Assembly: GCA_963804565.1 (NCBI GenBank)
Contig: CAWDQV010000001.1
Location: forward strand, 320,214-384,213
Length of the DNA: 64,000 nt
Direction of reading: 5' to 3'
Origin: Candidatus Dormiibacterota bacterium
Lineage (GTDB): Bacteria > Chloroflexota > Dormibacteria > Aeolococcales > Bog-877
This document shows positions 3,996 through 27,699 of the stretch, piece after piece. The number at the start of each line of letters is the position of its first letter. Position 1 is the first letter of the stretch. The translations under genes and the position numbers were made by a program. The notes under the pieces are model-generated. The model ran no database searches. It was not told the origin of the DNA and was given only the letters and a program-made list of their open reading frames with translations.

Positions 3996-4007
3996 CTACC
4001 AGTACTC

Positions 4008-6630: not shown

Positions 6631-6639
6631 TTGAGTCCC

Positions 6640-10835: not shown

Positions 10836-10867
10836 CGCGGACTCGCTCCCCTCCCCCGTCTACATCT

Positions 10868-11062: not shown

Positions 11063-11068
11063 GGATTA

Positions 11069-11984
11069 CTAATAGAGAGAGCCGGTGTTGACGATTGGTG
11101 AGGCCGGCTGGTCACTGCACAGCACGACCATCAGGTTGCTCACCATGGCCGCCTTGCGCTCCTCGTCAAGCTTGACGATTCCGCGCTCCTGCAGCCGTTC
11201 GAGCGCAAGTTCCACCATTCCGACCGCACCGTCAACGATCCGAGTCCGAGCCGCGACCACTGCATTGGCCTGCTGCCGACGCAGCATCGCCTGGGCGATC
11301 TCCGGTGCGTAGGCGAGATGGCTGATGCGCACTTCGACGATCTCCACCCCGGCGATGACGACGCGCTGGGCCATCTCGGCGGCAAGCTCTCCGGCGACGA
11401 TGTCGGTCGAGCCGCGCAGCGACAGGCCCTTGTCGGCAGGGTCGTCGTAGGGATGCGTGGTCGCGACGTGCCGAAGCGCTGACTCGGCCTGGACCCGGAC
11501 GAAATTGAGGTAGTCATCCACGGCGTAGACGGCACGCGAGGTATCGGCGACCTGCCAGACGACAATGGCGGCTATCTCCACCGGATTGCCATCGGCGTCG
11601 TTGACCTTCAGATGGTTGGTCTCAAAGTTCCTGACTCGGGTGCTGACAGTCCGTCGGTCCGAGAGGGGAAGGATCCACGACAGGCCGGTCTTGCGCACAG
11701 TGCCGACGTAGCTGCCGAAGAAGCGCACGACCTTGGTCTCACCCGGCTGCACGATGACCAACGAGGCCAGCGATCAGAACGGCCACTAGGATCGGAACGG
11801 CGAGGACGCCCTTGATCGAGCTGTGGGCAAGCGGGAAACAAACCCCGATGCAGATGGCGATGACGATGACGCCGAACCATCCGCTCAGGGACCACGCGGT
11901 CCGCTCCCGGATCACGACTCGGGTTCCCGAGTGGCCGACTGGAGTCGCCTGGGGGTCCTGCGTCGACTGGACGGACTGGCTCAT
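11069..11984 (-). CDS. SPFH / band-7 domain membrane protein (one frameshift near 11760)
   Basis: ORF 11739..11984 supplies the TM N-terminus ([34 protein letters not shown]). ORF 11069..11761 supplies the SPFH body ([63 protein letters not shown]). Confidence 0.85.
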
Positions 11985-12451
11985 GATTCGCTCCTAATTG
12001 CTGGCTCCACTAAACTGATATCTGAAAGCTATCACATTCTCCTCCGTCGAGCAATAGTCCCGGGGTCGACCCGGGGGGGGTCATGTGAGTTCCGTTGGGG
12101 CCGAAATCGGGATTGATCCTCCCCCCTCCTCCTCATCCGGGTCCAGAGCCTCAGCTTCGTGCCCGCGACTTCCGATAAGTCGGTGTGAGCCGTCAATTTG
12201 GATGCTCGCCGATGGGTGACACGGCCGATCCAAGTAGGTGGTTCGGATGGGCCCAGCGGTAGACCGCGCTAGTCTGTGGGCTGGGCTAGCGGCAACACTC
12301 ACTCGGCCCAAGGGAATCCTGGGCGGCACCGCGGTGATCGCAGCGAATCGGAGGTGCGACCATTCTCGACCGGCAACCAACGCTGAGCAGGCGGACGGCT
12401 TCCCGGTGGGCGGCGAGCCGGCGCCGGTGCGCCACACTGCTCACTGCCGTC

Positions 12452-13954: not shown

Positions 13955-14027
13955 CAGAGCCGGCTCAAAACGTCAAATACGTTCCTGCTTCCCTCGGAGT
14001 CTCGAGCCCGACGCTGAGCCGATCCGA

Positions 14028-14564
14028 TCAACCGTCCACTCGGAAGTCGAGGAGGAGGTATCCGGACGGAGAGGCGACGTGACCGGTGAGCGTCAATCGC
14101 TTCGGCAACCCCTTATCGAATAGCTTTCGCCCGCGCCGGTGGATGGCGGGGGCGATGACAAGCCGCAGCTCGTCCACCAGGCCGTATTCGAGCAGTGACT
14201 GCGCCACCGAGATGCTCCCGTGAACACCGATGTCTCCGCCGGACCGTGTTCTGAGTTCGGTCACGAACTCCGCGAGGTCGCCATCGACAACTGCGGTCGC
14301 GTTCCAGGTTGGGTCCGGAGTTGTCGAGGTCACCACGAATTTCTCGACGCCATTGATGAAGCTGGCGAAGGGTTCGATGGCACTCGTGGGCCAGAACTCG
14401 GCCCAGTCGTCGTATGTGCGACGGCCGAGGATTACGGTGTCCTGACTGGAGATCACTCGGGCCAAGTTGTTCCTCATCACCTCATCGAAGTCGGTAATGA
14501 ACTCATCCGGTTGCTCCGCGACACCGTCGAGCGACAACAACTCATAGGCGACTACTTTGCGCAC
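14028..14564 (-). CDS. Dihydrofolate reductase family protein (RibD C-terminal-like)
   Basis: MRKVVAYELLSLDGVAE..DTVILGRRTYDDWAEFWP..FVVTST..GDIGVHGSISVAQSLLEYGLVDELRLVIAP is the typical family pattern. Confidence 0.85.
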   Translation of the reverse strand: MRKVVAYELLSLDGVAEQPDEFITDFDEVMRNNLARVISSQDTVILGRRTYDDWAEFWPTSAIEPFASFINGVEKFVVTSTTPDPTWNATAVVDGDLAEFVTELRTRSGGDIGVHGSISVAQSLLEYGLVDELRLVIAPAIHRRGRKLFDKGLPKRLTLTGHVASPSGYLLLDFRVDG

Positions 14565-14910
14565 GAGCTCATCTCCTTACCGTTGTGGGTCGACTGAAGA
14601 GACGTTGCGCCCCTCCGAATCTCATCACCGCTGGCTCTTTTGGACCACTTGTGGTCGTCCAGTTGACCATCTGCGTGTGCTACCGCGCACTCAGGCGGAG
14701 CGGTTCGTGCGTCTTCGAGACCAGCTTCCGATCCTTGTGGTGAAGCTGGGTTAGCAGCAGGCTTTCAGTCCCGAACTCCCCCTCCCCGCCTGCATGGTGG
14801 CCGTCAGCCAGGGTCCGTCTTCTAGGCATGGCGCGGGTCGCGTGCCTACAGGCAACAGCTGATGCCGCCAGCTTTTGCCGCCTCGGCATCGCACAAGAGG
14901 GTTTGGCGCG

Positions 14911-15429
14911 TTAGTGGCCACCCAAGCGGACCCTGCCGTCCAGGAGCTCTCTCGCGATGTCTAGGTGCCCGAGGTGCCGGGCCGTCTCCTCGATCATGTG
15001 CGAAACCACCCAACGAACATTCGGCGGCTCGACGTCTTCGAGCCCGTGCTTGCCCAGTGGTGCCGCCGAGAGAGGGGTTGTCGCGAGCACTTCGTCAGAC
15101 TGCGCACACTGATCGCGGTAGAAGGAGACGACTTCGGCCGATGGGTCGTCGGTTGTGAACACCACCGTCAGAGGGTCGTAGGGGTGGCGATCCTCGTCGA
15201 GATCGCCGGGCAACTCCGGTTGCTTACCAGCCACGACGCCTTGGAACCAGTGCCACTCGGCCCCGCCCAGATGCTCTACCAACCCTGCCGGCGTCCACCC
15301 TGTCGGCACCACAGTGCGGTGCCAGGCCGCCTCGTCCAGACCCTCGACGACCGCCAAAATCGACTCGCGCTGGCGGCGTAGGAAATCGCGCAGCATCTCG
15401 TCGGCAGCGCTCTCGGGATCCTCAGTCAA
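14911..15429 (-). CDS. DinB-family (DUF664 / mycothiol-transferase-like) protein
   Basis: ..RESILAVVEGLDEAAW..GWTPAGLVEHLGGAEWHWF..WVVSHMIEETARHLGHLDIARELLDG carries the His-rich DinB four-helix signature. Confidence 0.8.
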   Translation of the reverse strand: MTEDPESAADEMLRDFLRRQRESILAVVEGLDEAAWHRTVVPTGWTPAGLVEHLGGAEWHWFQGVVAGKQPELPGDLDEDRHPYDPLTVVFTTDDPSAEVVSFYRDQCAQSDEVLATTPLSAAPLGKHGLEDVEPPNVRWVVSHMIEETARHLGHLDIARELLDGRVRLGGH

Positions 15430-15612
15430 ATCCGCGCTCCTCGCACAACGTCTGGTTGAAGGCAGGCTCCTCGGGCCGGCCGGCCCCGAGTGCCGTCGAT
15501 TATCATCCTAGCCACCAGGTGAATGTCGACGCTTCCAAGGCCCGCCAACAGGTAGGCGGTCCTTCGGGATTACTCGTCGCGGGGGCCCCCGCGATCGCTT
15601 CGCCTGGATCGA

Positions 15613-15945
15613 TCACTCGACCAGGAGCGCTCGGAGCTCAACCCTTCGGTTGCAGTGCTTCGACCCCACGGTCGCGAGACGGAGCGCGATGGCGGGGTCA
15701 GTGGCCTGAATGATCCAGAAGCCAGCGACGAACTCCTTCGCCTCTACGAAGGGCCCGGCAGTGACAACCGGCTCCCCGCCACGACCGTCAATGACGGTGG
15801 CCGTGCTGGGCGACGCGAGGCCACCGGCGAAGACCCAGTGACCCTCGGCCCGGAGTTGCTCATTGAAGATGTCGATCGCGGCCATTTCCTCCGCGGTTGC
15901 GGCATCGGACGACTCGGCAAGAACGGAAATCAGGTATTCAGCCAT
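15613..15945 (-). CDS. YciI-family protein
   Basis: 110 aa. ..FNEQLRAEGHWVFAGGLASPSTATVID..VTAGPFVEAKEFVAGFWII is the typical YCII/DGPF pattern. Confidence 0.8.
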   Translation of the reverse strand: MAEYLISVLAESSDAATAEEMAAIDIFNEQLRAEGHWVFAGGLASPSTATVIDGRGGEPVVTAGPFVEAKEFVAGFWIIQATDPAIALRLATVGSKHCNRRVELRALLVE

Positions 15946-16060
15946 CGGGTCGCCTCCTCTTCTGGCGTTATCTTCCCCGCGACCTTCCTCTCACTCCAAT
16001 ACGATCCCCGAAGAACCGGTCCGACACAAGCCGCGGACAACCTGGATGAGTTCTCGAGGG

Positions 16061-16100
16061 AGCCCAGGGCGGGGATTGAATCGGCTAACCCTTCCCCAGC
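16061..16100 (-). repeat. Degenerate tRNA-Thr 3'-end copy C (att-like scar)
   Basis: agcccagggcggggattgaa is an exact 19-20 nt match to the acceptor/T-arm end seen in copies A and B and in the tRNA-Thr region. Similarity decays after that. Confidence 0.6.
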
Positions 16101-16296
16101 GCCTGCTCGAGCTTGGGCGTTGGGAGGTCGAAATCAGCTGGGCGACGATCACCTGTCCACTTATGGCAAGTCACTTTCGGAAGAGGCCGTCGGTCCGATG
16201 CCAGATCAAGCTTGAGCCGGAGGCGCCGGAAGGCCGGCTAATGACGACGACGTAGTGAACACACCCAAAAGCAGGCCCCGCCAAAGGCGTTGAGGC

Positions 16297-17364
16297 CTAG
16301 GTGGCCGGACAAGGCGGGGTGTCGGCGCTCATCAACTGCGTCTGCAAAGAGAGCAACTTGACCGGCTGGGACCCATTCGAAGGCACAAACAGCGCCACTT
16401 GGATCAGCGAGTCGACCTCGATCTGCTCATATTGGATACCGAAGGGGACCAAGGTCGAGTACTCGGCGGTATTGGACGGGCTCGCAGTTACACACTGAAG
16501 GCCCGACGAGGCCCGCTCGGTAGATACCTCATCGATGCCGGCGAACTCGAGACTGCCACCGCTCACCGCGATGGATGTGACGGGATTTCGATCCACCGTG
16601 AGTCTCAGGCCGACGGAGATCCCATTGTCAGCAAAACTGCTGATCGCCTGCTGGTCGGTGGCGTAGAAACTGTTGGCGTTGGGGCTCGCGGCCACATCTC
16701 CCTGACCAGTGGTGAGGTACTTGACCAGCGCGACCACGCCGGACTTAGGCGCCGCGGACTGAATCTGCGCTTTGCCGTTTGTCATGGTCACGGCGCCGGG
16801 CAAATTGGTGTCCAGAATGGCAGCTCCGAAATCGAGACGCCAGGCGGTCTTCTTGGAGTCCTTGCGAAACACCCCGTACAAGGTGTAGGCAGGCGTGGGG
16901 TTGCTTCCGGTCGTGGCCTCCTCGGGAATCGTGGCCAAAAACTCGGCGGGGGTCTTGCCGGAGCCGGTCACGTAGACCGCGATGCTGGCTGCACTGGGAG
17001 CCGCGCCGGCCGTTATCGCGGCAGCAGCGGCCCGGCTCAACAGGCTGAAGTTCGAGTCATCCTGACGAGCCTCGACTCCCTCCTCGAGCTCGTTCTGGAG
17101 GCCGATATCGTAGGTGGCGCTGGCTTTGATCTCGGCCTTGCTGTAGTGGATCACCGTCTGGGTCGCTTGTTTCTGGCTCAAAGCTGCCGGGTAGGAGGCC
17201 CCGGTCAGGGTGGCCACCGACGCACTCGCCAAGAGCAGGGTGGCCCCCGCTAGTCGGGCAGTCCGCGTGGTTGATCGGACCGCCGCCGTACTTCCGCCGG
17301 GGTCGCTCCTGGCCCGACGGTGTGTATCCGAGCGTCCAGCTGACGCGGCTCGAGGAGCCATCAA
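16297..17364 (-). CDS. Secreted hypothetical protein
   Basis: 355-aa ORF. An Arg-rich N-terminus is followed by a hydrophobic signal-like LAGATLLLASASVATLTGA. No family recognised. Confidence 0.55.
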   Translation of the reverse strand: MMAPRAASAGRSDTHRRARSDPGGSTAAVRSTTRTARLAGATLLLASASVATLTGASYPAALSQKQATQTVIHYSKAEIKASATYDIGLQNELEEGVEARQDDSNFSLLSRAAAAAITAGAAPSAASIAVYVTGSGKTPAEFLATIPEEATTGSNPTPAYTLYGVFRKDSKKTAWRLDFGAAILDTNLPGAVTMTNGKAQIQSAAPKSGVVALVKYLTTGQGDVAASPNANSFYATDQQAISSFADNGISVGLRLTVDRNPVTSIAVSGGSLEFAGIDEVSTERASSGLQCVTASPSNTAEYSTLVPFGIQYEQIEVDSLIQVALFVPSNGSQPVKLLSLQTQLMSADTPPCPAT

Positions 17365-17597
17365 CAGGAGAGCGCGGAGCTCAGTCCTATCCTCGCGTCG
17401 GTTTTCTCGTCATAGCAGCCTAAGATCGCCCGATCATAGCCTTAGGGGCAACGGCCTCAAGCTGGCGTCGTCGCGTTGTTGCGGTCCCGGTACATCGATG
17501 GCGACCACTCGCGATCCTCAGTACTCAGCCCAGAACGGGCCGTGCTGGCTCTCCTCCTCGCGTCGATGTACGAGGACGTCGGTGGGGCCAATGCGAC

Positions 17598-17650
17598 ACA
17601 TTCAATCCACAACCTGTTCCGTCCCGAGTATTTGAGGCTGAGCGCTGCGC
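17598..17650 (-). repeat. Degenerate copy D of the tRNA-Thr-half / element-arm repeat
   Basis: 36/53 ungapped identity (hand count) to copy A 26332-26384, including gctgagcgc. It lacks the acceptor end. Confidence 0.4.
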
Positions 17651-17759
17651 TCCTGGGAAAGGGCAACTCTAGGGCTTCCAGTGAAAGGTCTTCACCGGCT
17701 CACTCGGCCGACTTCGTGCTGGGACTCCAATTATTCGTCCAGGTCGGAGTTCGGTCCCC

Positions 17760-18113
17760 TTACTCCGGAAACGCCTGAGCGAGTCGAACCCTGACCAGCT
17801 TCTCGACAAGCGGCTTCGGTAGAGGCTGGTCGATGGGGAACTGGAGTGCCCCAGTCGATGTCCGGTACGAAGCAACTTCCTTCTGCAGCTGCGGGAAGAC
17901 CGACCCGCTGTGGGGCAGATAGCTCAGATGGTTCTTGAACGCGGCGAATCCAGCAACGACCTTCCCATGAAGCCTGAATGCTGGCAGCTGGTAGGAGATC
18001 CCCTCCTCCGCTTCGGGGATCACCTCTAGGATCGTGTGTCGCAACTCCTCCAACGTGGACCGCTTAGGGTCGTCGAGTCTCGCCAAGTAGGCGTCGATTT
18101 CGCTACTGGACAT
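17760..18113 (-). CDS. DUF1801 (YdhG-like) domain protein
   Basis: MSSSEIDAYLARLDDPKRSTLEELRHTILEVIPEAEEGISYQLPAFRLHGKVVAGFAAFKNHLSYLP is the characteristic family pattern. Confidence 0.75.
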   Translation of the reverse strand: MSSSEIDAYLARLDDPKRSTLEELRHTILEVIPEAEEGISYQLPAFRLHGKVVAGFAAFKNHLSYLPHSGSVFPQLQKEVASYRTSTGALQFPIDQPLPKPLVEKLVRVRLAQAFPE

Positions 18114-18526
18114 GGATCGATTCTGGGTCCCCCGTCGAGAACGGGCAAGTCATTGACATCCACGCACCGCAGCGACCCGGCGGCTGCGCCGATACCACGA
18201 TCGGCCCCGGCAAGACGAGAGTTGAGGGCGGCAGGGCTACGTCCGTTGTTGCTAGTTATCTGATCATCGTTCGAGTCGGCGACTGTCGGGATGGCGGCCA
18301 CGTCCACGAAGGAGGCGATCAGAGACACGCCCCACGCGGTCAGGTGGGGCCTGATGGGCCATCACTAGCAGGGAGAGGGCAACCTCCCGGCCGGGCTGGG
18401 ATCCAAGCTGGCGGGCAGCACTCCGATGCGCTGTTTTCGGGAGATGGCGATGGCGTAGATTGCGGCATGATGCCCGGCAAGTTGGGTTCCTGGCGCCTGC
18501 CCGCGCCCGGGGCGCGCCGGGGACAG

Positions 18527-19375
18527 TTACAGTCCGGCTCGGGCTCGAAGTAGGTCGAGCTCGTCGCGCACGGCGCCTGGCTTCTCCATCCACACCATGT
18601 GCCCGCAGTCGGCCAGCACCCTCAGGCTGGCCCCGGGGATAAGGGCTGCGGAGGCGATCCCGTGGTGGGGCGGTATCGGGCTATCGGCACCGAGCAAAAA
18701 GGTGGTGGGAACCGACACCCGGGGCAGCTTGGAGACCAGTGTCTGGCGCTGGAAATGCTGGTGGATGGAGTCGAAGATCTGAGAGTAGCTCTCCAGCGAG
18801 ATCTGCATCTCGGGCATCGGCACCGCGGTCTGCGGGTTGGCGAAGTACCCGGGCCAGACCAGCTTCAGCGCCTCGATTGCCTCCTCGGGAGTTCCCTCGC
18901 CCTGCATAGCCCGCTGGTCCAGCTCTTCGGCCCGCGCCGCTGCCTCAGGGCTGGCCCTCTCACCGAGGATGCGGCTGAGGTCTGCCTCCCCACCGTCGGG
19001 GACCGCTCCCAGCGGATCGACGATTAGGGCTCCAGCGATCCGCTCCGGTCGGGCGGCGAGCAGATGCAGCAACAGATGGCCGCCCCAGGAGTGCCCGATC
19101 ACGAGGGCCTGGGCCAGTCCAAACTGATCCAGCACCCTGATCACGTCCTCGATCGCGCTCTCAACGTCGAACGGGCCTGCCGTCGATGAGGGTGACAGCC
19201 CTCGTTGTTGGAAGCGAATCACGGTGTAGCCGTCGGCCAGCTCGTCCTCAAGTCCCGCCGTGTACTCGGAGAGGCCGGGGCCCCCATGGAGCACCAGCAC
19301 CGCTGCACCGCTACCGGTCTTCCAGCCGGCGAGCCGGTTGTTCCCGGCCCCAATCTCGAAGTCGGGATCCCTCAT
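18527..19375 (-). CDS. Alpha/beta hydrolase (proline-iminopeptidase-like)
   Basis: From the internal MRDPDFEIGAGNNRLAGWKTGSGAAVLVLHGGPG..; nucleophile elbow GHSWGG; C-terminal CGHMVW. The 393-aa ORF start looks like a spurious extension. Confidence 0.85.
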   Translation of the reverse strand: MRDPDFEIGAGNNRLAGWKTGSGAAVLVLHGGPGLSEYTAGLEDELADGYTVIRFQQRGLSPSSTAGPFDVESAIEDVIRVLDQFGLAQALVIGHSWGGHLLLHLLAARPERIAGALIVDPLGAVPDGGEADLSRILGERASPEAAARAEELDQRAMQGEGTPEEAIEALKLVWPGYFANPQTAVPMPEMQISLESYSQIFDSIHQHFQRQTLVSKLPRVSVPTTFLLGADSPIPPHHGIASAALIPGASLRVLADCGHMVWMEKPGAVRDELDLLRARAGL

Positions 19376-19714
19376 CTCAGCGGAAATTCTATCGAGGCGA
19401 ACTGGGCGTGCAAAGGCTACTTGCGGCGACTCAGGAGGAGATGGGCGGGGGCAACCCTGTGTGGGCTTGCGGATTGGGACGTTCCCCCTCCCGGTGCCGT
19501 CCGGGTGCGTTGCCGGAAGCGCCCTGGGGGGTAGCTGGAGAATCCCCTGGGCTGGCCCGGTCCAGTGGTGCCCCGGCCACCGACTATGGGCGGTGCGGCT
19601 GACTTCCAGAGGTCGAGCGTACGGTGCCCAATTGAAGTAGTGGTGAGGATCAGACCTGACCAGACGCGGGGCGAAGGGCGCCCGGGGGCAGATCCGCCCA
19701 CCTCGCACTGCTGC

Positions 19715-20989
19715 TTAGCGTCCGGGATCAGTTGGCCGCAACCATAGCGAGAGGTGCGCCGGCTCTACGGAGGACTGAACGGCCCGGACGAACTCGGAGC
19801 TGACCACTTCCAAGTCGATATCCTGCCGAAGGCGATGCGCGAATGCCTCGATGGTGGCCGCGGCATCGTATCGAGCTCGGTTGAATCGCCGATCCACCAG
19901 CCGTTGGACCCCCCTGCGCAGGGGGTTGAATAGGGCCACAGCGATCAGGGTGGAAGCGGCCACTCCCAGCGGTGACGAGAACGGTAGAACCCTGGTCGCC
20001 AAGGTGACCAGGCCAACATAGACCCCGACCAGAAGCCCGGTGACGATGGCGTAGGACAAGGTCCGGCTGATCAGGCGGTCGACATCATAGAGACGGTACT
20101 TGAGGATCCCCACACCGAGGGCGAGCGGGAGTGCCCCCAGCAGTAGACCGGACACCAGGCCAGTCACCTGAGCAGTCACGGAGGCGTTAGCGGGAGTGGC
20201 AAACGAAAGCAGGAGGCCGACTCCGCTCACGGTGGCGCCAGCCACGAACCACTTCAGTTGCTGACGCTGCTCCCCAGTCGCTCGCCTGTAGCTACCGACC
20301 AGCCTCACGACCCAGACCGACCAGAACACTAGGTAGATCGGAAGTATCGTCTCTGCGCCGTTGTACACCAGCGCCGCCAGCCCAGTCGGGTGATCGAGGA
20401 CCGTGAGCTGGCCGGTTGCGTCCACTTTGATGGATTGCCCGACGACTCCGCTCGCGGCGACCCCCACATTCGCCACGATCCACACCGCGCCGATCCCCAA
20501 ATACGACCGCAGAACCCACCGCCAACGCTGAGACGGCAAACGTCCGTCCGGAAACAGCAGCACTGGCAATGGGAAGAGAGCTATCGCTGGCGCCCAGCCG
20601 AGCTGGAGGAACACCGCCACTACTCCCAACGGCAGCGCTCCATGCCTGAACCGGTAGTCCCAGGCGGCGTATGCCCCGCCGGTGATGCTCAGCAGTCCGA
20701 ACAGTGCCGTACCCAACAGGATCCAACCCAGGGCGTTACGCGGCTTGCGCAGCGATACCACGAAGCCCGCCACAGCCAGGAAGCCGAAGGCAAGTGGAAG
20801 GGCCGAGTCGGCCAGCGTTACTGGTTGGCGTGCAGGGCCACTGAGCACAACACGTGCGATCAGGAGTACCAGCACCACGCCTAGGAGTGCCGCCGCCGCG
20901 TGCGTCGCCACGGGGAAGCTCCTAGCCCTCGGGGCTATGGCAGCCCGATTGCCACCGCTGTGCGGCGCTGCTTGGGACGGATGCGGCAT
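19715..20989 (-). CDS. Polytopic membrane protein with C-terminal RRFNRxRYD-type cytoplasmic domain
   Basis: About 10 hydrophobic segments, then ..LFNPLRRGVQRLVDRRFNRARYDAAATIEAFAHRLRQDIDLEVVSSEFVRAVQSSVEPAHLSLWLRP. Confidence 0.7.
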   Translation of the reverse strand: MPHPSQAAPHSGGNRAAIAPRARSFPVATHAAAALLGVVLVLLIARVVLSGPARQPVTLADSALPLAFGFLAVAGFVVSLRKPRNALGWILLGTALFGLLSITGGAYAAWDYRFRHGALPLGVVAVFLQLGWAPAIALFPLPVLLFPDGRLPSQRWRWVLRSYLGIGAVWIVANVGVAASGVVGQSIKVDATGQLTVLDHPTGLAALVYNGAETILPIYLVFWSVWVVRLVGSYRRATGEQRQQLKWFVAGATVSGVGLLLSFATPANASVTAQVTGLVSGLLLGALPLALGVGILKYRLYDVDRLISRTLSYAIVTGLLVGVYVGLVTLATRVLPFSSPLGVAASTLIAVALFNPLRRGVQRLVDRRFNRARYDAAATIEAFAHRLRQDIDLEVVSSEFVRAVQSSVEPAHLSLWLRPTDPGR

Positions 20990-21495
20990 GGGTGTAGCTC
21001 CTCCGGTGCCACCAGGGGCGGTCGGCGGTTCAGATGGACTCTAGGCCGCGAACGTTCCCGGATCGTTACCGTAACCGGGCCATCTGGGTCACCCGAAAAG
21101 GGTTGGCCCCGATCTGAGCCGCCCGCTCGGACCCCGGCCGAGCGATCGGTGAGGCGAAGCGGGCGGTGCGGAGCGGTATGTCGCCCACTTCTCGGGTGGC
21201 CGTGATTCCGAATGAGCCCAGGGCGGAAGTCGACCGCGCGACCTCCTCTCTACCAAGGATTTTGGCCCCGGCGTTATGCACCTAGGCGTGGGAGGGCAAG
21301 CGTTTGGGACCAACTAAAGTGCTCTACGATTGGCCCTCCAGAGGCGCCACGCGACCGCCAAGGGCGGGCGCGCCACCGGACACCGAACGCCGGTGCTTGC
21401 CCCATCAGGGACTGGAGAGGGCCCTCTGCTCGCCGCCAGCAGTAACTGAGCCGCGTCCTCAGCGTTTCCAGGGACATGGCTCGAGCTTCGCCGGA

Positions 21496-22605
21496 ATGAA
21501 ACGGCTGACAACGTACCTCGGCTTGGCCCTAGTGGCGCTAGCTGCGACCGGCTGCAGCTCCCAATTGGCTGCCCCGCGATCACAACAACACGCATCCCCG
21601 GTTGCTACCAAGCAGACCTCCGGCACCCCCACGCCCGATGGCGTGGCTTTCTGGGACGCGAAGCACGGCCTCCTCATCGTCGACCTGACCACGCCCGCCT
21701 GCGCCGCCTCCGGCTGCACCCGTTCCGATAGCGTCATTGAGAGGACCGAGGATGGAGGTAAGCACTGGAAGGTGGTCGACCGGCTGGCGCGCGCGCTTCA
21801 GGCGGTGGCGGTAGCGGGAACCGAGGTCGCATGGGTGACGATGCGAAGCCCCTACTGCTCGTTGGAGTGCGACTCCAACAGCCTGCTCCTGACCCGGGAC
21901 GGCGGGGCTAGCTGGCGGAAGGCAACTTCGAACAAGCCTGTCGGATCTGTGTCGCCGGTGTCGGCCAGCACCGCCTGGGCAATTTCTAACGTCAGCGCCA
22001 CCTCCGCAGATCCGACGGGCACCAGCCTGGTCCAAAGCACGGACGGAGGCCGTACCTGGCACGTGCAACCCTATCCCTGCAACTCTTTCGCGGGACTGGG
22101 CATCGCGATCAGCACGGTCAACTTCAGCGGACTCAGCCGTGGCTCCGCTGTCTGCGCCGGGGTGCCTGCCACCGACATGCAGGCCAAGGCCATGTATGCC
22201 ACCACTGATCGCGGTGCGAGTTGGACTCTCCAGTCGGAATGTCCGAATGTCACGTCTGTGGGACAGCAGCCCGGCGCCATCGGAATCTTGGACTGCGTCG
22301 GTGTCGATCCCACGCTGCAGCTCCTCGCCGGTGGGCACGGCTGGATGTGGAGCAGTCGGCTTGGGCTGGAATCTACCAGCGATGGGGGACGGATCTGGAA
22401 TCTGATAGCTCGGAAGGTCGTCTTTGACGACACCAGTGAAGTCGTCACGGCATCTTTGGTGAGCGATTTGGTCGGCTTCGTGCTGATCGGGCCCCGCCCG
22501 GAATCCCCGGCCGGATGCCCTCCACGAGGCTGCGGGCCACGGCTCCTGTCAACCAAGGATGGTGGAGAAAGTTGGGCGATCCTCACTACCTGGCCAGCAC
22601 CATAA
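21496..22605 (+). CDS. Lipoprotein with BNR/Asp-box repeats (Ycf48/sialidase-like beta-propeller)
   Basis: ATG at 21496. MKRLTTYLGLALVALAATGCSS has a lipobox. Repeated S/T-x-D-G-G-x-x-W motifs: TEDGGKHWK, TRDGGASWR, STDGGRTWH, TTDRGASWT, TSDGGRIWN, TKDGGESWA. Confidence 0.75.
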   Translation: MKRLTTYLGLALVALAATGCSSQLAAPRSQQHASPVATKQTSGTPTPDGVAFWDAKHGLLIVDLTTPACAASGCTRSDSVIERTEDGGKHWKVVDRLARALQAVAVAGTEVAWVTMRSPYCSLECDSNSLLLTRDGGASWRKATSNKPVGSVSPVSASTAWAISNVSATSADPTGTSLVQSTDGGRTWHVQPYPCNSFAGLGIAISTVNFSGLSRGSAVCAGVPATDMQAKAMYATTDRGASWTLQSECPNVTSVGQQPGAIGILDCVGVDPTLQLLAGGHGWMWSSRLGLESTSDGGRIWNLIARKVVFDDTSEVVTASLVSDLVGFVLIGPRPESPAGCPPRGCGPRLLSTKDGGESWAILTTWPAP

Positions 22606-22845
22606 CGGTCCCGATCGTTAGCAATATGCTTCGGCGGTGGCGTCCGGCGTCCCCGGTTTTCGGCTTGCCTGGGTCGCCTGGGCCAATTCGGGCGAAGTCG
22701 ACCGAGTGGCCGGAGCACTCGTCGCCGTTCCCCGGCGGAGTGCTCGGAGGCGCGGCCTGATGGGCTGTGGCGGAGTGAATGGGTCGATCGGCAAGCTGTA
22801 TGCTCGTGCGCCGTCCGGTCCGTCGAGGCGAACCACGTTAGGGAC

Positions 22846-23331
22846 ATGCCGAAACGCAAGACTGCTAGAACCGATCGGATCATCCAGCGCGCCGGCTGGA
22901 TTCTCGGCGCATTAGCCTGCCTGGGTCTTGCCCTGACTGGCTGCCAGGCTCACACCAGTTCGCCTTCCAAAGCGCCCCACCCGTCAACCGCAACCACCCC
23001 TGTTGGCGACGGTGCGGTGGTGGGCGGAATCGACGGATGCAACGCAATCCCCCTGAACGGAGGTGACGGCTTAGTCGCGGGCACGGTGACCGTGCTCACG
23101 GGTGCCGTTTCCTACATGCTTGAACCGAACGGCGGGCGTAGGGTGGTTCTTCCGACGAACCAGATCAAGCACCAATCTGTGCGCGCGGGCCAGGAATTTC
23201 GGATCGACCTCCCTCCCGGCACCTACGTCTTGGCAGCCAACTTTGGTTCACCGGGCTACGCGCCGTGGGTGTCGGTGGTCGTCCGACTCGGCGTGGTGGA
23301 GCACAAAGACATCGGGGACGGGTGCGTCTGA
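22846..23331 (+). CDS. Lipoprotein, paralog 1 (carboxypeptidase-regulatory-like fold suspected)
   Basis: Lipobox LALTGC. GDGAVVGGIDGC..VAGTVTVLTGAVS..GQEFRIDLPPGTYVLAA..GDGCV*. Confidence 0.65.
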   Translation: MPKRKTARTDRIIQRAGWILGALACLGLALTGCQAHTSSPSKAPHPSTATTPVGDGAVVGGIDGCNAIPLNGGDGLVAGTVTVLTGAVSYMLEPNGGRRVVLPTNQIKHQSVRAGQEFRIDLPPGTYVLAANFGSPGYAPWVSVVVRLGVVEHKDIGDGCV

Positions 23332-23476
23332 TTCAGACCTTCGAGAAGCGAACAAGCTCAGATTCGATAGGGTCTCGGCCAAGGACGGCGCGATGCGGCT
23401 GACTTCGGGACGGCGAGCGCGGAGCGCCCAATAAAGTGGCGGTGAGCAGGGCGGATCCGCCCCAGAGACCGCCCAG

Positions 23477-23965
23477 TCAGATGCACGGGCTGGGAATGGT
23501 CTGGTTGGTTATCCTGCCCTCTCGAATTACGACCGGCACCCAGGAGATGATGTCCCCCTGGGCGTAGTGGGCTACCAGTACGTAACGCCCAGGCCCCAGG
23601 TAGATCCGGAATCGGTGGCCCTTCAGCACCCGCTGGGATGCCACTCGGTCCCTTGGTAGCACGTCGGCATTGCCGTTTGCCTCGGTGGGGGTCTTAGACA
23701 CCGTTCCACGGAGAACTACCACCGTGCCCGCGACATATCCGGGACGATGCAGTTCACGCGCTCCGACGCATGCGGCGATGCCTCCCACGACGGCACCATC
23801 ACCGCTCGGAATGGCCGATGCCGCTGAGCACCCGGTGAGAGCAACCATCAGTACGCTCAACGCCGCCCCGACCACGGAGGCCCGTGAAATGCATTGACCG
23901 GTCGCCTTCCACATCCGACGCATGATGACAGTGGGGCCGAGCCATCGGGTGCCATCCGAGATCAA
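23477..23965 (-). CDS. Lipoprotein, paralog 2 (convergent with paralog 1; start may be the internal MRRMW)
   Basis: Lipobox VALTGC. GDGAVVGGIAAC..VAGTVVVLRGTVS..GHRFRIYLGPGRYVLVA..SPCI*. Confidence 0.65.
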   Translation of the reverse strand: MISDGTRWLGPTVIMRRMWKATGQCISRASVVGAALSVLMVALTGCSAASAIPSGDGAVVGGIAACVGARELHRPGYVAGTVVVLRGTVSKTPTEANGNADVLPRDRVASQRVLKGHRFRIYLGPGRYVLVAHYAQGDIISWVPVVIREGRITNQTIPSPCI

Positions 23966-23987
23966 ACTGGGCCTGGCCGGTCAAAAG

Positions 23988-24053
23988 AGCCCAGGGCGGG
24001 GAGTGAACCAGCGACCTCTTCGTTACCCAGAATCTGAAGCTGAGCGCTGTGCC
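23988..24053 (-). repeat. tRNA-Thr 3'-half copy B plus shared element arm (att-like scar)
   Basis: agcccagggcggggagtgaaccagcgacctcttcgttacccag is 38/43 identical to tRNA-Thr 27543-27585. It is followed by aatctgaagctgagcgctgtgcc, which is shared with copy A. No 5' acceptor or D arm can be formed. Confidence 0.7.
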
Positions 24054-24167
24054 AATGACTTCCAGGAGGTCACCATAAGGCGTCCAGTCAAGTCGTCTGC
24101 ACCGCGCCACCCATAGAGCGGCGCTAGAGCAACAAAGCCTCCCTCCGTAACCTGGACCTAGGCCGAA

Positions 24168-24443
24168 TTGACGTTCCCGGGAGTCAGGCCACCCGTCCCA
24201 CCCTTCACGCGCCATGCGAGACTGGGACCCGTGAGGCCAGCGGAACTGACGGGATTCTTTGCCGCCTCCGCGGCCGTGGTCAGTAGCCTGGTCGGCCTGC
24301 TCTTCGTCGCTATCAGCCTTCGCTATGAGGCCGTTCTTGGCTCAGACGCCCAGGGTACGAATCGAGCCGTCGCGGCCGCCGCTCTCACGCCCCTTGCCAA
24401 TGCGCTGATAGTTCCGCTCTGGGCTCTCATCCCGGGATGTTGA
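24168..24443 (+). CDS. Small two-TM ORF (possibly a gene fragment)
   Basis: ..LTGFFAASAAVVSSLVGLLFVAISL..AAAALTPLANALIVPLWALIPGC*. Overlaps the next gene by 7 nt. Weak evidence. Confidence 0.3.
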   Translation: MTFPGVRPPVPPFTRHARLGPVRPAELTGFFAASAAVVSSLVGLLFVAISLRYEAVLGSDAQGTNRAVAAAALTPLANALIVPLWALIPGC

Positions 24444-26302
24444 AGCCTGAGGACGAGCTGGGGACGGGGCCAGACTGCACACCGGTTCGCTTGCTGCCGG
24501 GTCCGCGCATCGACGGCTGTCGCATCCTCTCCCCGCAACAGTCGGTCTATCTTGACGGGGCCGAGGCCCAACTGTTCAAGGTCCTGAGCGCCGCCCACGA
24601 CCTCTCCTCCGGGAGCGACGAACTGGCCGACCAGGCGACCAACTGGCCAGAGCGATATCACCTGAGTCCCGCTCGAGCGAACTTGCTGCGCGCACTCGAG
24701 CTCGACGCCGGGCTGGCGGTTCTCGAGATCGGCGCAGGGTGTGGGGCTCTGACCCGCTATCTAGGCGAGAGGTGTCGACTGGTTGACGCCATTGAGCCGG
24801 TGATTGAACGCGCGCGCGTCGCCCGGGCTCGCACACGGGACCTGGCGCACGTGGAAGTGTTCGTCGGCTCCCTCGGGGATATTCCCTCCCAGAAGACGTA
24901 TGACCTAATCGTGATCGCGGGAGTCCTCGAATATGTGGGCCATGGGTCGTCCGATACCTCACATCACCGCTCGTTCCTCGCGGATTCGGCCGCGCGGCTG
25001 GCGCCGGGCGGAACTCTCCTCATCGCCATCGAAAACTCTTTGGGTGTGAAGTATCTCGTCGGCGCCCCAGAAGACCACAGTGGACGACCGTTCGACTCGT
25101 TGGAGGGATACCCAGAAGGTTCGCCAGCGCGCACCTTCCCGCGAAGCGCCCTTGCCAGCTGGATCGTCGAGTTAGGGCTGCGGCCCACCTTCCTCGGCGC
25201 CTTCCCCGACTACAAGTTCACTCGCACGCTCCTCGCTGACCGGCTGTTCGAGATTCAACCTGACCTGGCGTGGCGACTCGCGAAGTTCCCGAGCCCGGAC
25301 TGGCCCGAGCCGGCGCCGCGCGTCGCCCGGGAAGCGGCTGCGTGGAGGACTCTGGTCGAGGCTGGGCTCGGTCCTCAGACTCACAACTCCTTCGTCATCC
25401 TCGCTTCGGATGGATCTGGCGAAGCCCTCTGGCCAGACGACATGATCGCGGCCGTCTTCCAGAACGACCGACGTGCCGCCTTCTCCACCCAGACGATGGT
25501 GTCCGACGGTGGCGGACAGCTGCATTTCAACCGGCAAGAAGCGGAAGACGAACAGGGCCCCAACGTCAAGGATCAGCCCGCAGCGAGCCGCGCCGCGCCG
25601 CGCCTGACACTTAGGGACGGGAAGGTCGAGTTCGTTACGGGCACAGACATGATCGAGGTGCTGGCGGCTTCGACGGTGGCCGAGTTCGAGCGCCTCATGC
25701 GGCTATGGTTGGACCTGATCGATAGAATCTTGGAATCGCCCCACGAGGGAACTCCCTTCGACGCGCTGCCCCATAACGTGGTCATCACGCCTGCCGGGGA
25801 ATTGGTCCTAGTCGACTGCAAGTGGGCGAATGCCGACGCGACTCGGTCCGACCTCCTCGCACGGTGCGCCCTCGTAACCTCGCTCCAACTGGCTGAGCGC
25901 GCCGACTTCTCGCGGTGGGGCGACGCAAATGGCGAGGCCCTCGCACGGCGAATTGGCGAACTGGTTGGCCTGCCGGGTGAAACAGCGTGGCTCACAGCCG
26001 CCGTAGCCTGGGAGGCACGCCTTCAGGACGCGGTCACGGTCAGGGTCGGATCATTGCCGCCTGGTCCTGCTCGAGTACAAGAGTTCGAGTCTCTGCTCTG
26101 GCGGCGCCTCCAGGACCTCCGATCAAACCTCTCACCCCAAAGGTCGGAGAGCCTATCTCAGATCCTCGCTTTACTGGCCGAGTCGGAGGTGAGGTTGGCG
26201 CGTCTTCGAGGCTCACTGAGTTGGCGGATCACCAAACCACTTCGAACTGCCAATGCCGTACGCCGATCGCTAGTCGCCCGAACCGCCCCCCACCGCCGCT
26301 GA
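24437..26302 (+). CDS. Class I SAM-dependent methyltransferase fused to a kinase-like domain and a short C-terminal coiled coil (WbdD-like architecture)
   Basis: Intact 621-aa ORF. SAM motif I VLEIGAGCGALTRYLG; LLIAIENSLGVKYLVGAPEDHSGRPF. Later FDALPHNVVITPAGELVLVDCKW shows D-x4-N then D, a Brenner-type kinase-fold signature. Heptad-like LLWRRLQDLRSNL..LALLAESEVRLARLRGSLSWRITKPLR near the end. Confidence 0.8.
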   Translation: MLKPEDELGTGPDCTPVRLLPGPRIDGCRILSPQQSVYLDGAEAQLFKVLSAAHDLSSGSDELADQATNWPERYHLSPARANLLRALELDAGLAVLEIGAGCGALTRYLGERCRLVDAIEPVIERARVARARTRDLAHVEVFVGSLGDIPSQKTYDLIVIAGVLEYVGHGSSDTSHHRSFLADSAARLAPGGTLLIAIENSLGVKYLVGAPEDHSGRPFDSLEGYPEGSPARTFPRSALASWIVELGLRPTFLGAFPDYKFTRTLLADRLFEIQPDLAWRLAKFPSPDWPEPAPRVAREAAAWRTLVEAGLGPQTHNSFVILASDGSGEALWPDDMIAAVFQNDRRAAFSTQTMVSDGGGQLHFNRQEAEDEQGPNVKDQPAASRAAPRLTLRDGKVEFVTGTDMIEVLAASTVAEFERLMRLWLDLIDRILESPHEGTPFDALPHNVVITPAGELVLVDCKWANADATRSDLLARCALVTSLQLAERADFSRWGDANGEALARRIGELVGLPGETAWLTAAVAWEARLQDAVTVRVGSLPPGPARVQEFESLLWRRLQDLRSNLSPQRSESLSQILALLAESEVRLARLRGSLSWRITKPLRTANAVRRSLVARTAPHRR

Positions 26303-26319
26303 GGCGCCGCTAGCGCCGG

Positions 26320-26384
26320 CGCCCAGGGCGGGGATTGAACCCGCGCCCTCTTCCTTTCCAAGAAACTGAAGCTGAGCGCGGTGC
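26320..26384 (-). repeat. tRNA-Thr 3'-half copy A plus shared element arm (att-like scar)
   Basis: gcccagggcggggattgaacccgcgccctcttcctttccaag is 41/44 identical to the tRNA-Thr 3' end through the anticodon loop. It is followed by aaactgaagctgagcgcggtgc. The upstream part cannot make a D arm or a correctly spaced acceptor. Confidence 0.75.
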
Positions 26385-26525
26385 TACCGAGATCCTGGGG
26401 CCTAGCGAGACCTGTCCAGCTAAGTGGCAATCCCTGGTGCTGTGACTGCGCCTGATGCGAACACGTGCAGAGGAGTCCACCTGAACGTCGATTCTGTTCG
26501 CCGTCGGAGGGGACCCAGGCGCTGG

Positions 26526-27383
26526 TTACCGGTCGTGGTGAGCGGCGTTTGGGCGCGGGTCGCCGAGTGGGAAGGCGACATCGCAAACTAGGTCGTTTGG
26601 TCCGATATCGTCTGGCTCGACGAGGTATACCTCACGGCAGGACAATCGGCTGCCAGGGCGGGAGGTCACGTCGAGCGAGCACGCTACGGCGTCGTAGGCG
26701 GCAAGGATTACCGGGTAGTCCCATTGGGCCTTCGTAATTCTCGTGTATGCCTCCTCGTGGGATGGTTCGGTGCGAACACCGACGATGTTGTCGGGCTGTA
26801 TCTGCGGAGGGCAGGGCAGCACCGCCTCGAGCGGACCGTCGTGCTCGGCATCGACGACGCCGTGGAAGATCAGCATGAAGGGGCCGGTCGCAGGTGCTCC
26901 TCGCAGGCGGACGGCGAAGGCCTTCTTCGCCTCTCGCACGAAACCGTCGGTCTCGTTCCCGTGGAGGCGCCGCTGGATCGACATGACGCTCTGGGCCGGT
27001 ACGCGACGTACGTGGATCGGGAACATAGGGTCGCCTCCCTGGCTAAAAGTCGCTTGGATGTGGTGGATGAGCAACTGGCGATCAGCCTGGCGGCGCGCAA
27101 AGTCCGCGAGGATCTGGTCCAGTCGTCGGATTGCCAAATCGGAGTTCCGTGCGACATCGTCGAGCATGAGTTGGATGTCGGCGAGACTTAGATCTGCACC
27201 GCGCAGCAGACCGATCAGCTGCCCGGTTCGAATCTGCCTGGTCCCATAGCGCCGGTAGCCGGTGGAGGCGTCAGTGAGGGCCGGCGTGAGGAGACCGTTC
27301 CGGTCGTAGATACGTAGCGCCTTGGGCGTCAGACGCGTCCGGCGAGCAAACTCGCCGATCGACAGCCGATCGACGTTGTCCAC
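26526..27383 (-). CDS. MerR-family transcriptional regulator with GyrI-like effector-binding domain
   Basis: LSIGEFARRTRLTPKALRIYDRNGLLTPALTDASTGYRRYGTRQI (MerR HTH) plus a ~150-aa C-terminal GyrI-like region. Confidence 0.85.
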   Translation of the reverse strand: MDNVDRLSIGEFARRTRLTPKALRIYDRNGLLTPALTDASTGYRRYGTRQIRTGQLIGLLRGADLSLADIQLMLDDVARNSDLAIRRLDQILADFARRQADRQLLIHHIQATFSQGGDPMFPIHVRRVPAQSVMSIQRRLHGNETDGFVREAKKAFAVRLRGAPATGPFMLIFHGVVDAEHDGPLEAVLPCPPQIQPDNIVGVRTEPSHEEAYTRITKAQWDYPVILAAYDAVACSLDVTSRPGSRLSCREVYLVEPDDIGPNDLVCDVAFPLGDPRPNAAHHDR

Positions 27384-27542
27384 GACCGAGATCCTCGTCC
27401 CTGCCCCAGGGGCAAGGTCAAGCTAGCCCTGATGCCGGCACAGAATCCACCTGGCTGGCCAACACCTAGCGCCGGATCAGCGTCTCGAACCCCGCTCGAC
27501 ACCCCGCCACAGTCGATTGCGACCTGTCCAAGAGATCAGCGG

Positions 27543-27614
27543 AGCCCAGGGCGAGGATTGAACCCGCGACCTCTTCCTTACCAAGGAAGCGCTCTACCAC
27601 TGAGCTACCTGGGC
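27543..27614 (-). tRNA. tRNA-Thr (anticodon GGT)
   Basis: Reverse complement GCCCAGG-TA-GCTC-AGTGGTA-GAGC-G-CTTCC-TTGGTAA-GGAAG-AGGTC-GCGGG-TTCAATC-CTCGC-CCTGGGC-T is a 72-nt cloverleaf. Confidence 0.93.
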
Positions 27615-27615
27615 G

Positions 27616-27699
27616 TGGGCGGGAAGGGATTCGAACCCCTGTAGGCGTAAAGCCAGCTGATCTACAGTCAGCCCCGTTTAACCACTTCGGTACCCGCCC
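27616..27699 (-). tRNA. tRNA-Tyr (anticodon GTA, long variable arm)
   Basis: Reverse complement GGGCGGG-TA-CCG-AAGTGGTTAAA-CGG-G-GCTGA-CTGTAGA-TCAGC-(15-nt variable arm)-AGGGG-TTCGAAT-CCCTT-CCCGCCC-A, 84 nt. One nt separates it from tRNA-Thr. Confidence 0.9.

Follow-up and report, generated by a model that had tools for sequence, protein, structure and literature searches.

The 64,000-nucleotide stretch of Candidatus Dormiibacterota DNA analyzed here (hereafter the window) carries an array of small gene cassettes downstream of an intact tRNA-Thr(GGT) gene, which ARAGORN and Rfam placed at 27541–27614 on the minus strand and which is the integration target. Between the cassettes lay copies of a unit of ~108 nt, in which a conserved non-tRNA arm of ~60 nt is followed by the tRNA-Thr 3′ half from the anticodon stem onward. 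Serial site-specific integration into this 3′ half by elements of one attP (phage-type attachment site) family was supported, as proposed in a first-pass annotation that had described the copies as scars of repeated integration by elements sharing an attP. In the reading that we favor, at a probability of about 0.55, the cassettes were mobilized in trans, in the manner of cis-mobilizable elements (CIMEs) or integron cassettes, and accreted at tRNA-Thr by recombination of the tyrosine-integrase type. Rather than one locus that decayed by accident, the array resembles a system of small non-autonomous cassettes shared across the lineage.

The array occupied the interval between tRNA-Thr and rpmG, which was 20.7 kb long in the window and contained only accessory genes (Pfam). 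Its left flank at 6.6 kb comprised rpmG, tRNA-Trp, nusG and, most likely, secE; to the right of the tRNA-Tyr/tRNA-Thr pair were the genes for a tRNA_bind protein, PspA, PspAB and an M48 peptidase, and ribF. The order tRNA_bind/tRNA-Tyr/tRNA-Thr was conserved among Dormibacterota loci, and the tRNA_bind protein of the window was 75–80% identical in amino acid (aa) sequence to its best matches, which makes the organism a relative of Candidatus Dormibacterota. The G+C content was ~64% across the whole window, and a compositional break was absent.

Copies of the Unit in the Window

To avoid circularity, a hidden Markov model (HMM) of the unit was built solely from 26 units of other genomes and run on the 64-kb window. 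This external HMM detected eight copies (A, B, C, D, E, F, X1, and X2) and the tRNA itself, with nothing else at E < 0.1; the match to tRNA-Thr and its downstream flank covered 27513–27606 (E = 1e-21). All eight copies were on the minus strand, which is that of the tRNA, within 12.1–27.6 kb and at most 15.5 kb downstream of tRNA-Thr. No further copy was detected in the other 48 kb of the window. The target and the copies were as follows.

27541–27614, minus strand: tRNA-Thr(GGT), read as an attL-type junction that would join the chromosomal 5′ half to a 3′ half from the last cassette; the 3′ half is repeated in the units
27513–27540, minus strand: P′-side motif 3′ of tRNA-Thr, GCTGATCTC TTGGACAGGTC; the external HMM match extends to 27513
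26319–26431, minus strand: unit A, P-arm, junction and tRNA-Thr 3′ half (external HMM E = 2e-28)
23979–24102, minus strand: unit B (E = 8e-30)
23388–23439, minus strand: X2, arm-only remnant (E = 4e-4)
21182–21331, minus strand: unit E, with the unit proper at 21214–21321 and then a P′-like stretch (E = 7e-13)
19583–19634, minus strand: X1, arm-only remnant (E = 2e-6)
17585–17693, minus strand: unit D, HMM match 17600–17693, arm well kept (E = 8e-9)
16053–16165, minus strand: unit C, last 22 nt 21/22 (E = 5e-10)
12109–12214, minus strand: unit F, strongly decayed (E = 7e-3)

A BLAST search of the window with tRNA-Thr gave significant matches to copy A (26321–26362, 39/42, E = 3.6e-12), copy B (23987–24027, 37/41, E = 3.5e-9), and copy C (16059–16080, 21/22, E = 5e-5), and copy E appeared as a colinear pair of short matches at 21214–21259. 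Copy D was not significant against tRNA-Thr alone by BLAST; its arm was shared with A and B over 39 nt at 72–77%, and it was matched by the external HMM. The identity of the tRNA-derived 45 nt of each unit was scored against the clade consensus and amounted to 42/45 in A, 40/44 in B, 35/44 in E, 32/37 in C, 21/29 in D, and 19/25 in F; X1 and X2 retained the arm only. The value for the decayed tRNA part of D exceeded all 300 shuffles, and this copy therefore kept a decayed acceptor/T-arm that the first-pass annotation had taken to be missing. The similarity between A and B continued for ~65 nt past the tRNA part (78 nt at 82%), so that their common non-tRNA arm, already noticed in that annotation, was longer than the ~27 nt given there.

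The four partial copies first reported (A to D) were all real, and E, F, X1, and X2 had been overlooked. Because E, X1, and X2 lie in 17.6–24.0 kb, the single module claimed for that segment consisted of four, and at least eight modules were found in the region instead of four. None of the units was called as a tRNA by ARAGORN or by Rfam at the gathering score, in agreement with the earlier statement that the partial copies are not tRNA genes.

Anatomy of the Unit

The consensus of the arm was ...GAAGACCAC(A/T)TAACTGGACGCCTT...CTGGAAGTCAGNNGCACAGCGCTCAGCTTCAGAT. The block of identity with the tRNA began in the anticodon stem, where the units read T(T/A)CTTGG and the tRNA reads TCCTTGG; in the longer reading of the junction, T(T/A)CTTGGTAAGG / T(T/A)CTTGGTAAGGAAG in the units stands against TCCTTGGTAAGG / TCCTTGGTAAGGAAG in the tRNA. 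The block extended through GGGCTCC, the 3′ end of the tRNA, and TGATCTC beyond it. Upstream of the anticodon stem, the units carried the conserved non-tRNA arm and not a duplication of the tRNA. The motif CAC(A/T)TAACTGGAC was found at the start of the arm and again ~17–31 nt 3′ of the core. At the tRNA-Thr gene of the window, the P′-side motif was a shortened form of TGATCTC-N-CAC(A/T)TAACTGGAC and read GATCTCTTGGACAGGTC.

Conservation of the arm was patchy and motif-like. Among 26 units with unrelated cargo, positions within the motifs CACNTAACTGGAC, GGAAGTCAG, and GCACAGCGC were conserved at 75–90% or more, and the positions between them varied. The boundary of identity coincided with the anticodon stem-loop, in which a perfect 5-bp inverted repeat encloses a loop of 7 nt. 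Judged by what is established for such sites, the layout would correspond to the attP of a heterobivalent tyrosine integrase with crossover in the anticodon loop.

Single-strand DNA folding of eight units was no better than that of shuffles (z −0.6 to +1.5), which indicated that the units are neither attC-like hairpins nor structured RNAs. Two other identities were rejected. A full-length tRNA-like gene with a 10-nt insertion was considered since a stretch in A and C, GCCCCAGG/GCCCAG, could pair with the acceptor 3′ strand; the stretch was not conserved across units and the folding signal was absent. By inspection, the arm was also not a sigma-70 promoter, the spacing of its TTGACT-like and TANNNT-like hexamers being 8 or 21 nt.

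The T-stem of the window tRNA-Thr (27558 region) read AATCCTCGCC, and all window units as well as the tRNA-Thr genes and units of the relatives read AATCCCCGCC. The AATCCTCGCC variant makes a G-U pair in the T-stem and was specific to the present gene copy in the window.

Arrays in Related Genomes

Relatives were read over ~10 kb on either side of the locus and the host genome over 64 kb. The same array was present at the same locus in nine other Dormibacterota genomes or contigs, which made ten with the window. Units were located downstream of tRNA-Thr in the same orientation in loci L002/L139, L135, L138, L140, L142/143, L146/147, and L152, and also occurred in the metagenome contigs L117, L119, and L131. 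The more divergent Dormibacterota L003, L004, L005, and L148 had none within the flank covered.

The 33 inter-unit intervals of the ten genomes ranged from 485 to 3997 bp (median 1721 bp), and many of them consisted of one gene followed by a unit (MST, YceI, PQQ, DUF1801, a 424-aa membrane protein, or a FitA/PIN pair); toxin-antitoxin cassettes were present in L140. In L140, the distance from tRNA-Thr to rpmG was ~6.2 kb with three units, vs. 20.7 kb in the window, between identical flanks. This indicated that the flanks are ancestral neighbors and that everything between them was accreted.

No unit copies were found in ~100 kb of the relatives' flanks, that is, the housekeeping flanks of ten loci. 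With none elsewhere in the window either, the repeat was not a dispersed family over the DNA covered; genome-wide dispersal was what the first-pass annotation had named as able to undo its reading. A metagenome scan with GCACNGCGCNNNNCTTCAGNTTCTNGG returned 19 loci, of which L117, L119, L125, L131, and L133 contained true units; L119 was the same as L125 and L131 the same as L133, which left three distinct sequences, and the remaining loci were coincidental matches within coding regions. These DNA scans, of genomes and metagenomes, were single-shot; the junction pattern represents one arm subtype only.

Other insertions have repeatedly struck the tRNA-Tyr/tRNA-Thr junction, which is normally of zero length, and the first bases after tRNA-Thr (8547–9811 in L002/L139, 8331–9533 in L135, 8368–9836 in L146, and 8685–9889 in L152). 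An IS481-family element was found in L002 and L139, and this insertion sequence (IS) family was seen in two different positions across loci. The insertion in L146 contained a PIN-domain gene and small open reading frames (ORFs), and that in L152 small ORFs. Partial tRNA-Tyr copies were not found beside these insertions in the relatives.

Assemblies L001, L141, L149, L150, and L151 broke at or just past tRNA-Tyr/tRNA-Thr, as expected where unit repeats and strain-level cassette variation defeat assembly. The L001 contig (DATKSI010000010.1), labeled as Candidatus Micrarchaeaceae archaeon, showed Dormibacterota tRNA_bind/PspA synteny at 79–94% aa identity and was probably mis-binned or mislabeled. 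In L142/L143, an 84-nt tRNA-Thr(ggt) called by ARAGORN at 19923–20006 on the minus strand overlaps the 3′ end of ylxR and reaches into the ylxR-nusA spacer; it is probably a false positive.

Breakpoints and Cassette Order

Loci L138 and L139 differed in their first cassettes; identity was 99.9% across the distal cassettes and 98.8% across the tRNA and the DNA upstream of it. L138 carried MerR and five small ORFs (3.25 kb) where L139 carried a single SBP_bac_5 gene (2.2 kb), and one breakpoint was ~10 nt 3′ of the tRNA, the other within the first unit's arm. The PQQ cassette was the first in L142 and the second in L140, after the RibD_C cassette. Starting at the 3′ end of the distal unit, homology between the two copies (88.6% over 1.9 kb) stopped precisely at the anticodon-loop position, past which L142 continued with the tRNA 5′ half and L140 with the arm. 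Presence/absence and replacement polymorphism among the relatives broke exactly at the repeats in both pairs, as the first-pass annotation had anticipated. Order also differed elsewhere: MST preceded PQQ in the window and PQQ preceded MST in L142, and the 424-aa membrane-protein cassette was the fifth in the window and the second in L138, L139, and L146. In L135 and L138, as in the window, the MerR gene adjoined tRNA-Thr; L148 had a truncated homolog ~1.2 kb downstream of tRNA-Thr.

Searches for a Recombinase

The earlier statement that no integrase is left in the modules held in every search. No recombinase was found by Pfam in any substantial ORF of the 64 kb, by six-frame translation of the intergenic gaps of the tRNA-Trp module (4.9–6.6 kb) and of 15.9–27.5 kb, or by PHROGs among the unannotated ORFs of the window. 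Scans of L002, L003, L117, L119, and L131 revealed none, and none was listed in precomputed Pfam tables for the 10-kb flanks of L135 to L152. No cassette of the window or the relatives contained a PF00589 or PF00239 match; the only integrase/transposase-type matches were IS transposases (IS481, IS630-like helix-turn-helix, and IS1595). The two complete intervals, those of the window and L140, were recombinase-free, and neither an integrase nor a fragment of one was detected in the 33 inter-unit intervals of the ten genomes. The neighbors of the insertion point (tRNA_bind protein, PspA, PspAB, and M48 peptidase) included no recombinase.

Autonomous relatives were also sought. Searches of IMG/VR for an attP or an autonomous element with the junction, the arm and two tRNA-3′-half patterns gave 0 true matches, INPHARED phages and PLSDB plasmids gave matches to tRNA genes only, and no autonomous relative was found among the metagenome matches.

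A second tRNA-side insertion was observed at the far end of the locus. A tRNA-Trp 3′-half copy was located at 4949–4985 on the minus strand (37 nt, 92%, E = 3e-9), and the 1.6-kb module next to it (4986–6556), between tRNA-Trp and secE, contained a Glyoxalase_6 gene (5410–5799). This insertion was absent from L140, and its arm was unlike the tRNA-Thr arm. Just upstream of the tRNA-Trp fragment, 5183–5233 on the minus strand read LLGHCSIAITARTYAEV, and the end of the ORF, ...VSRLLGHCSIAITARTYAEVLPSL..., resembled the C-terminal LGH...T..Y box of tyrosine recombinases. The stretch had no Pfam match, relative in PDB or homolog; at the level of the motif, it may be suspected to be the C-terminal remnant of a tyrosine recombinase.

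Cassette Contents and Flanks

The genes between the units and at the borders of the interval were as follows.

27615–27699, minus strand: tRNA-Tyr(GTA) (ARAGORN, Rfam), zero spacer to tRNA-Thr, conserved upstream flank
26526–27383, minus strand: cassette 1, 285-aa MerR-family regulator (Pfam MerR_1, 7e-13)
24437–26302, plus strand: cassette 2, 621-aa protein with a class-I S-adenosylmethionine methyltransferase domain (Pfam Methyltransf_12/23/25)
23477–23965, minus strand: cassette 3, 162-aa ORF without family match (Pfam, PHROGs)
21304–23331, plus strand: cassette 4, 161-aa ORF (22846–23331) and 433-aa BNR/Asp-box repeat protein (21304–22605)
19715–20989, minus strand: cassette 5, 424-aa polytopic membrane protein (translation)
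17760–19582, minus strand: cassette 6, alpha/beta hydrolase (ORF 18527–19708) and DUF1801 protein (17760–18113) (Pfam)
16297–17364, minus strand: cassette 7, 355-aa ORF without family match (Pfam, PHROGs)
12452–15945, mixed strands: composite distal block with YCII (15613–15945, minus), MST/DinB (14911–15429, minus), RibD_C (14028–14564, minus) and PQQ beta-propeller (12452–13954, plus) (Pfam)
6799–12108, mixed strands: oldest part of the variable interval with Band_7 (11069–11761), GtrA-like (7749–8456) and unannotated ORFs (Pfam)
6557–6798, minus strand: rpmG (6640–6798) and tRNA-Trp (6557–6630), part of the conserved far flank, to which secE and nusG further to the left also belong

Cassette 1 was tightly packed, its 1222 nt comprising the 858-nt MerR gene and a unit of ~110 nt, and the MerR protein was 88 and 84% identical to the products of the tRNA-Thr-adjoining genes of L138 and L135, respectively. 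Across the relatives, identity to the window proteins was 82–84% for MST, 83–84% for PQQ, 84–88% for MerR, and 54–74% for the 424-aa protein. In cassette 6, the DUF1801 gene with its arm was 85% identical at the nucleotide level (94% aa) to a cassette of L152. The true start of the alpha/beta hydrolase is probably well downstream (3′) of X1 at 19583, because the longest ORF overlaps the X1 arm and the Pfam domain begins at residue 136.

The 424-aa membrane protein was 73–74% identical to its homologs in L002, L138, and L146 and 54–60% to those in L117, L142, and L152, and a unit followed each copy. Since it is a polytopic membrane protein without a Pfam or PHROG match, it was rejected as a candidate recombinase. 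Its family (~424–431 aa) was the most recurrent cassette cargo (e.g., L142 1815–3101 and L135 4888–6183), and L152 carried two paralogous cassettes of it (285–1574 and 3087–4382). Conservation of the gene extended into ~150 nt of its upstream, P′-side sequence.

The distal block was homologous to L140, L142, and L131. In the relatives, MST and PQQ were separate single-gene cassettes with their own units, which have been lost in the window. X1 was what is left of the unit found after the 424-aa gene elsewhere and matched L117 810–916 and L138 4467–4559 in position, and F occupied the position where L142 has an intact unit (1496–1604), beside the Band_7 block, which was 86% identical to L142 at the nucleotide level (95% aa). 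The position of X1 and F at sites of intact units in relatives, together with the missing units between MST, RibD_C, and PQQ, suggested that old junctions decay and cassettes fuse. No units were detectable in 6799–12108.

Proposed Mobilization in Trans and Its Alternatives

Under the mechanism that we propose, a circular cassette with arm, core and P′ would recombine with the anticodon stem-loop of tRNA-Thr. The tRNA would be rebuilt from the cassette's own 3′-half copy, and the displaced old 3′ half, now behind the arm of the cassette, would become the next unit. Each unit would accordingly be an attR-type junction, in which a P arm of ~60 nt is joined at the anticodon stem-loop to a displaced tRNA 3′ half, and the P′ arm of the next, older cassette would lie 3′ of it. 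Repetition would stack the cassettes with the oldest nearest rpmG. Besides both of its attP arms, a cassette would hold one or a few cargo genes and no recombinase, and would be moved by a recombinase encoded elsewhere. Recombination between units, site-specific or homologous, would delete or move cassettes, and the internal junctions, free to decay or be deleted after insertion, would let neighboring cassettes fuse. The lack of a recombinase even in the youngest cassettes and the reshuffled order favored such mobilization in trans over the decay of islands.

Several observations weigh against this reading. No recombinase acting on the units was found, so that action in trans is deduced from an absence. 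The units of the window decayed with distance from the tRNA (42/45, 40/44, 35/44, then 21/29, with two that lost the tRNA part), which suggested that internal sites are not maintained in the window and that they may be dead scars. When orthologous cassettes were compared, the arm was no better conserved (59–71%) than the adjacent spacer (57–68%), in cassettes whose genes were 84–93% and whose tRNA-like parts were 91–98% identical. The divergence of MerR resembled that of housekeeping genes, and hence even the ‘newest’ cassette is old. The swap between L138 and L139 could have arisen by homologous recombination through the identical flanks, a site-specific step not being needed. Finally, the candidate integrase remnant beside tRNA-Trp, if real, would mean that the decay route also acts in this genome.

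The alternative that survives best, although we consider it doubtful, is that each module is the decayed remnant of an autonomous island or prophage, in which the integrase and core genes were deleted, the cargo and an att scar were left, and the repeats now serve no function. Such a history is the usual one for tandem islands next to tRNA and tmRNA genes (10.1101/2020.12.28.424599; PMC5704250; PMC3146451), and it agrees with the decay, loss and fusion of units in the window, with arms no better conserved than spacers, and with the 1.6-kb tRNA-Trp module and its possible integrase motif beside a tRNA fragment. However, 0/33 intervals kept an integrase or a fragment of one, whereas about half of the Dehalococcoides islands keep the module (PMC3146451), and the youngest cassettes, which have near-perfect units and differ between 99.9%-identical genomes, were also without it. 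Many intervals were 0.9–1.7 kb long with a single gene and scarcely any spare DNA. More than 20 independent clean deletions would be needed, and deletion alone cannot yield the inverted cassette order between genomes. The history implied by the first-pass annotation, ordinary islands that each lost the integrase, was therefore a poor fit to 33 intervals with a median of 1.7 kb, no trace of an integrase, and reshuffled order.

It seems improbable that, once the units existed, RecA-dependent homologous recombination between the 45–110-bp repeats came to account for all present activity (deletion, excision and re-insertion as well as allelic replacement following DNA uptake) with no site-specific recombinase active now. 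The units and the tRNA share 45–55 nt of near-identical sequence, which is enough at low frequency, long identical DNA flanks the L138/L139 replacement, and the tRNA-like parts stay at 91–98% while the arms drift, which fits gene conversion with the tRNA. But this process cannot create new cassettes, and it leaves unexplained why every cassette has the same P-arm and P′-arm motifs and why conservation is motif-like over 26 units with unrelated cargo.

Least probable is that the repeats are a gene-linked RNA or DNA signal (a tRNA-like processing or terminator element, or a duplicated tRNA pseudogene) or a dispersed family like repetitive extragenic palindromes or miniature inverted-repeat transposable elements: most cassette genes are co-oriented with the units and have the unit on their 3′ side, and A shows a weak resemblance to the tRNA 5′ half in its 5′ part, yet unit orientation follows the tRNA and not the genes (the opposite strand carries methyltransferase, BNR, and PQQ), the folding and tRNA calls were negative, the module contents are unrelated and hence not duplications, copies had one orientation only with none outside the interval in the 64 kb or the relatives' flanks, and the metagenome-wide scan with the junction pattern found array-like loci and chance coding-sequence matches only.

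Comparison with Known Systems

Both tRNA and tmRNA genes are well known as sites of serial integration that leaves repeats of part of the gene (10.1101/2020.12.28.424599; PMC5704250; PMC3146451; for tRNA fragments in general, PMC9897764). In streptococcal arrays of integrative conjugative elements (ICEs), integrative and mobilizable elements (IMEs), and CIMEs, direct repeats of the target 3′ end bound tandem modules as they do here (PMC5704250). CIMEs likewise keep attL and attR, lack integrase and transfer genes, and see newcomers enter the regenerated site (PMC5704250). In the present array, att-type sites flanked modules without recombination or transfer genes, and the P and P′ arm motifs were kept, as in CIMEs. 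CIMEs are described as occasional decay products beside an intact ICE or IME (PMC5704250), whereas every module in the ten genomes was non-autonomous; most modules held one or two genes, and a helper element was not adjacent.

The closest analog is the ssrA islands of Dehalococcoides, tandem islands of strain-variable content downstream of a single-copy small RNA gene, which share with our array a direct repeat of the gene 3′ end and a conserved non-gene motif just upstream of it (PMC3146451). Of 31 such islands, 15 had no integration module and were proposed to be cis-mobilizable (PMC3146451). They differ in the tmRNA target, the 20-bp repeat with crossover in the T-loop, and their much larger size, and 16/31 encode the serine recombinase DsiB (PMC3146451), whereas no module here encoded a recombinase. 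Here, the target was tRNA-Thr, and the shared core spanned ~55 nt from the anticodon stem and was preceded by the ~60-nt arm; such an arm, with motifs repeated on both sides, points to a tyrosine integrase. The tycheposon islands of Prochlorococcus resemble our array in the streamlined genomes, the tRNA-side position, the older elements pushed into the island by successive integrations, and the scattered partial tRNAs (10.1101/2020.12.28.424599). Tycheposons carry their own tyrosine recombinase and leave integrase fragments among the remnants (10.1101/2020.12.28.424599), neither of which was seen here.

Chromosomal integrons and clusters of attC sites lacking integrases (CALINs) also consist of ordered, mostly single-gene and mostly co-oriented cassettes that each end in a recombination site. 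One fixed insertion end, strain-variable order, recombinase-free cassettes and toxin-antitoxin cassettes (L140) are further common features. Unlike integrons, the array had no intI beside the insertion point, which was a tRNA gene, and its sites were attP-like, double-stranded and with arms, rather than the imperfect palindromes of attC. The staphylococcal cassette chromosome (SCC) and pseudo-SCC arrays at rlmH (orfX) are likewise tandem cassettes bounded by repeats of the integration site, and some SCC cassettes without ccr rely on the ccr of another element. SCC differs in that its recombinases are of the serine type, its target is a protein gene and its elements are much larger, usually with a ccr-bearing element among them.

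We file the array as a new variant of site-specific accretion arrays, CIME-like and outside any named family. It differs from the systems above in the absence of recombinase genes across ten genomes, the one-gene-sized modules, the uniform ~108-bp unit with two-sided arm motifs, and the tRNA-Thr target. In the literature, our coverage of which was incomplete, no report of mobile elements at this locus in Dormibacterota was found.

Significance

Dormibacterota, which are abundant in soil and uncultured, have small genomes of ~2.4–2.5 Mb, and to our knowledge almost nothing is known about gene exchange in them. Apparently, this locus is a major place of flexible gene content organized as exchangeable one-gene units, whose cargo ranges over regulators, transporters, detoxification enzymes, toxin-antitoxin pairs, and a family of membrane proteins that recurs. 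The ~108-nt unit offers a searchable signature for such arrays, and it may explain assembly breaks, many contigs ending exactly at the tRNA.

A bolder extension, which we advance tentatively and hold to be rather unlikely as a whole, is that this Dormibacterota clade possesses an integron-like gene-capture platform of independent origin. The tRNA-Thr 3′ half would serve as the fixed insertion site, and the ~108-bp double-stranded attP-like unit (CACNTAACTGGAC, GGAAGTCAG, and GCACAGCGC motifs and tRNA 3′ half) as the cassette site; a dedicated, unlinked tyrosine recombinase would insert, excise and reshuffle one-gene cassettes, none of which ever encodes a recombinase of its own. Should the cassettes indeed be moved by a recombinase encoded elsewhere, non-autonomous cassettes rather than autonomous islands would be the normal currency at this locus, and the integron principle would have been reached by a second route, from a tRNA gene and attP-type sites of the ordinary kind.

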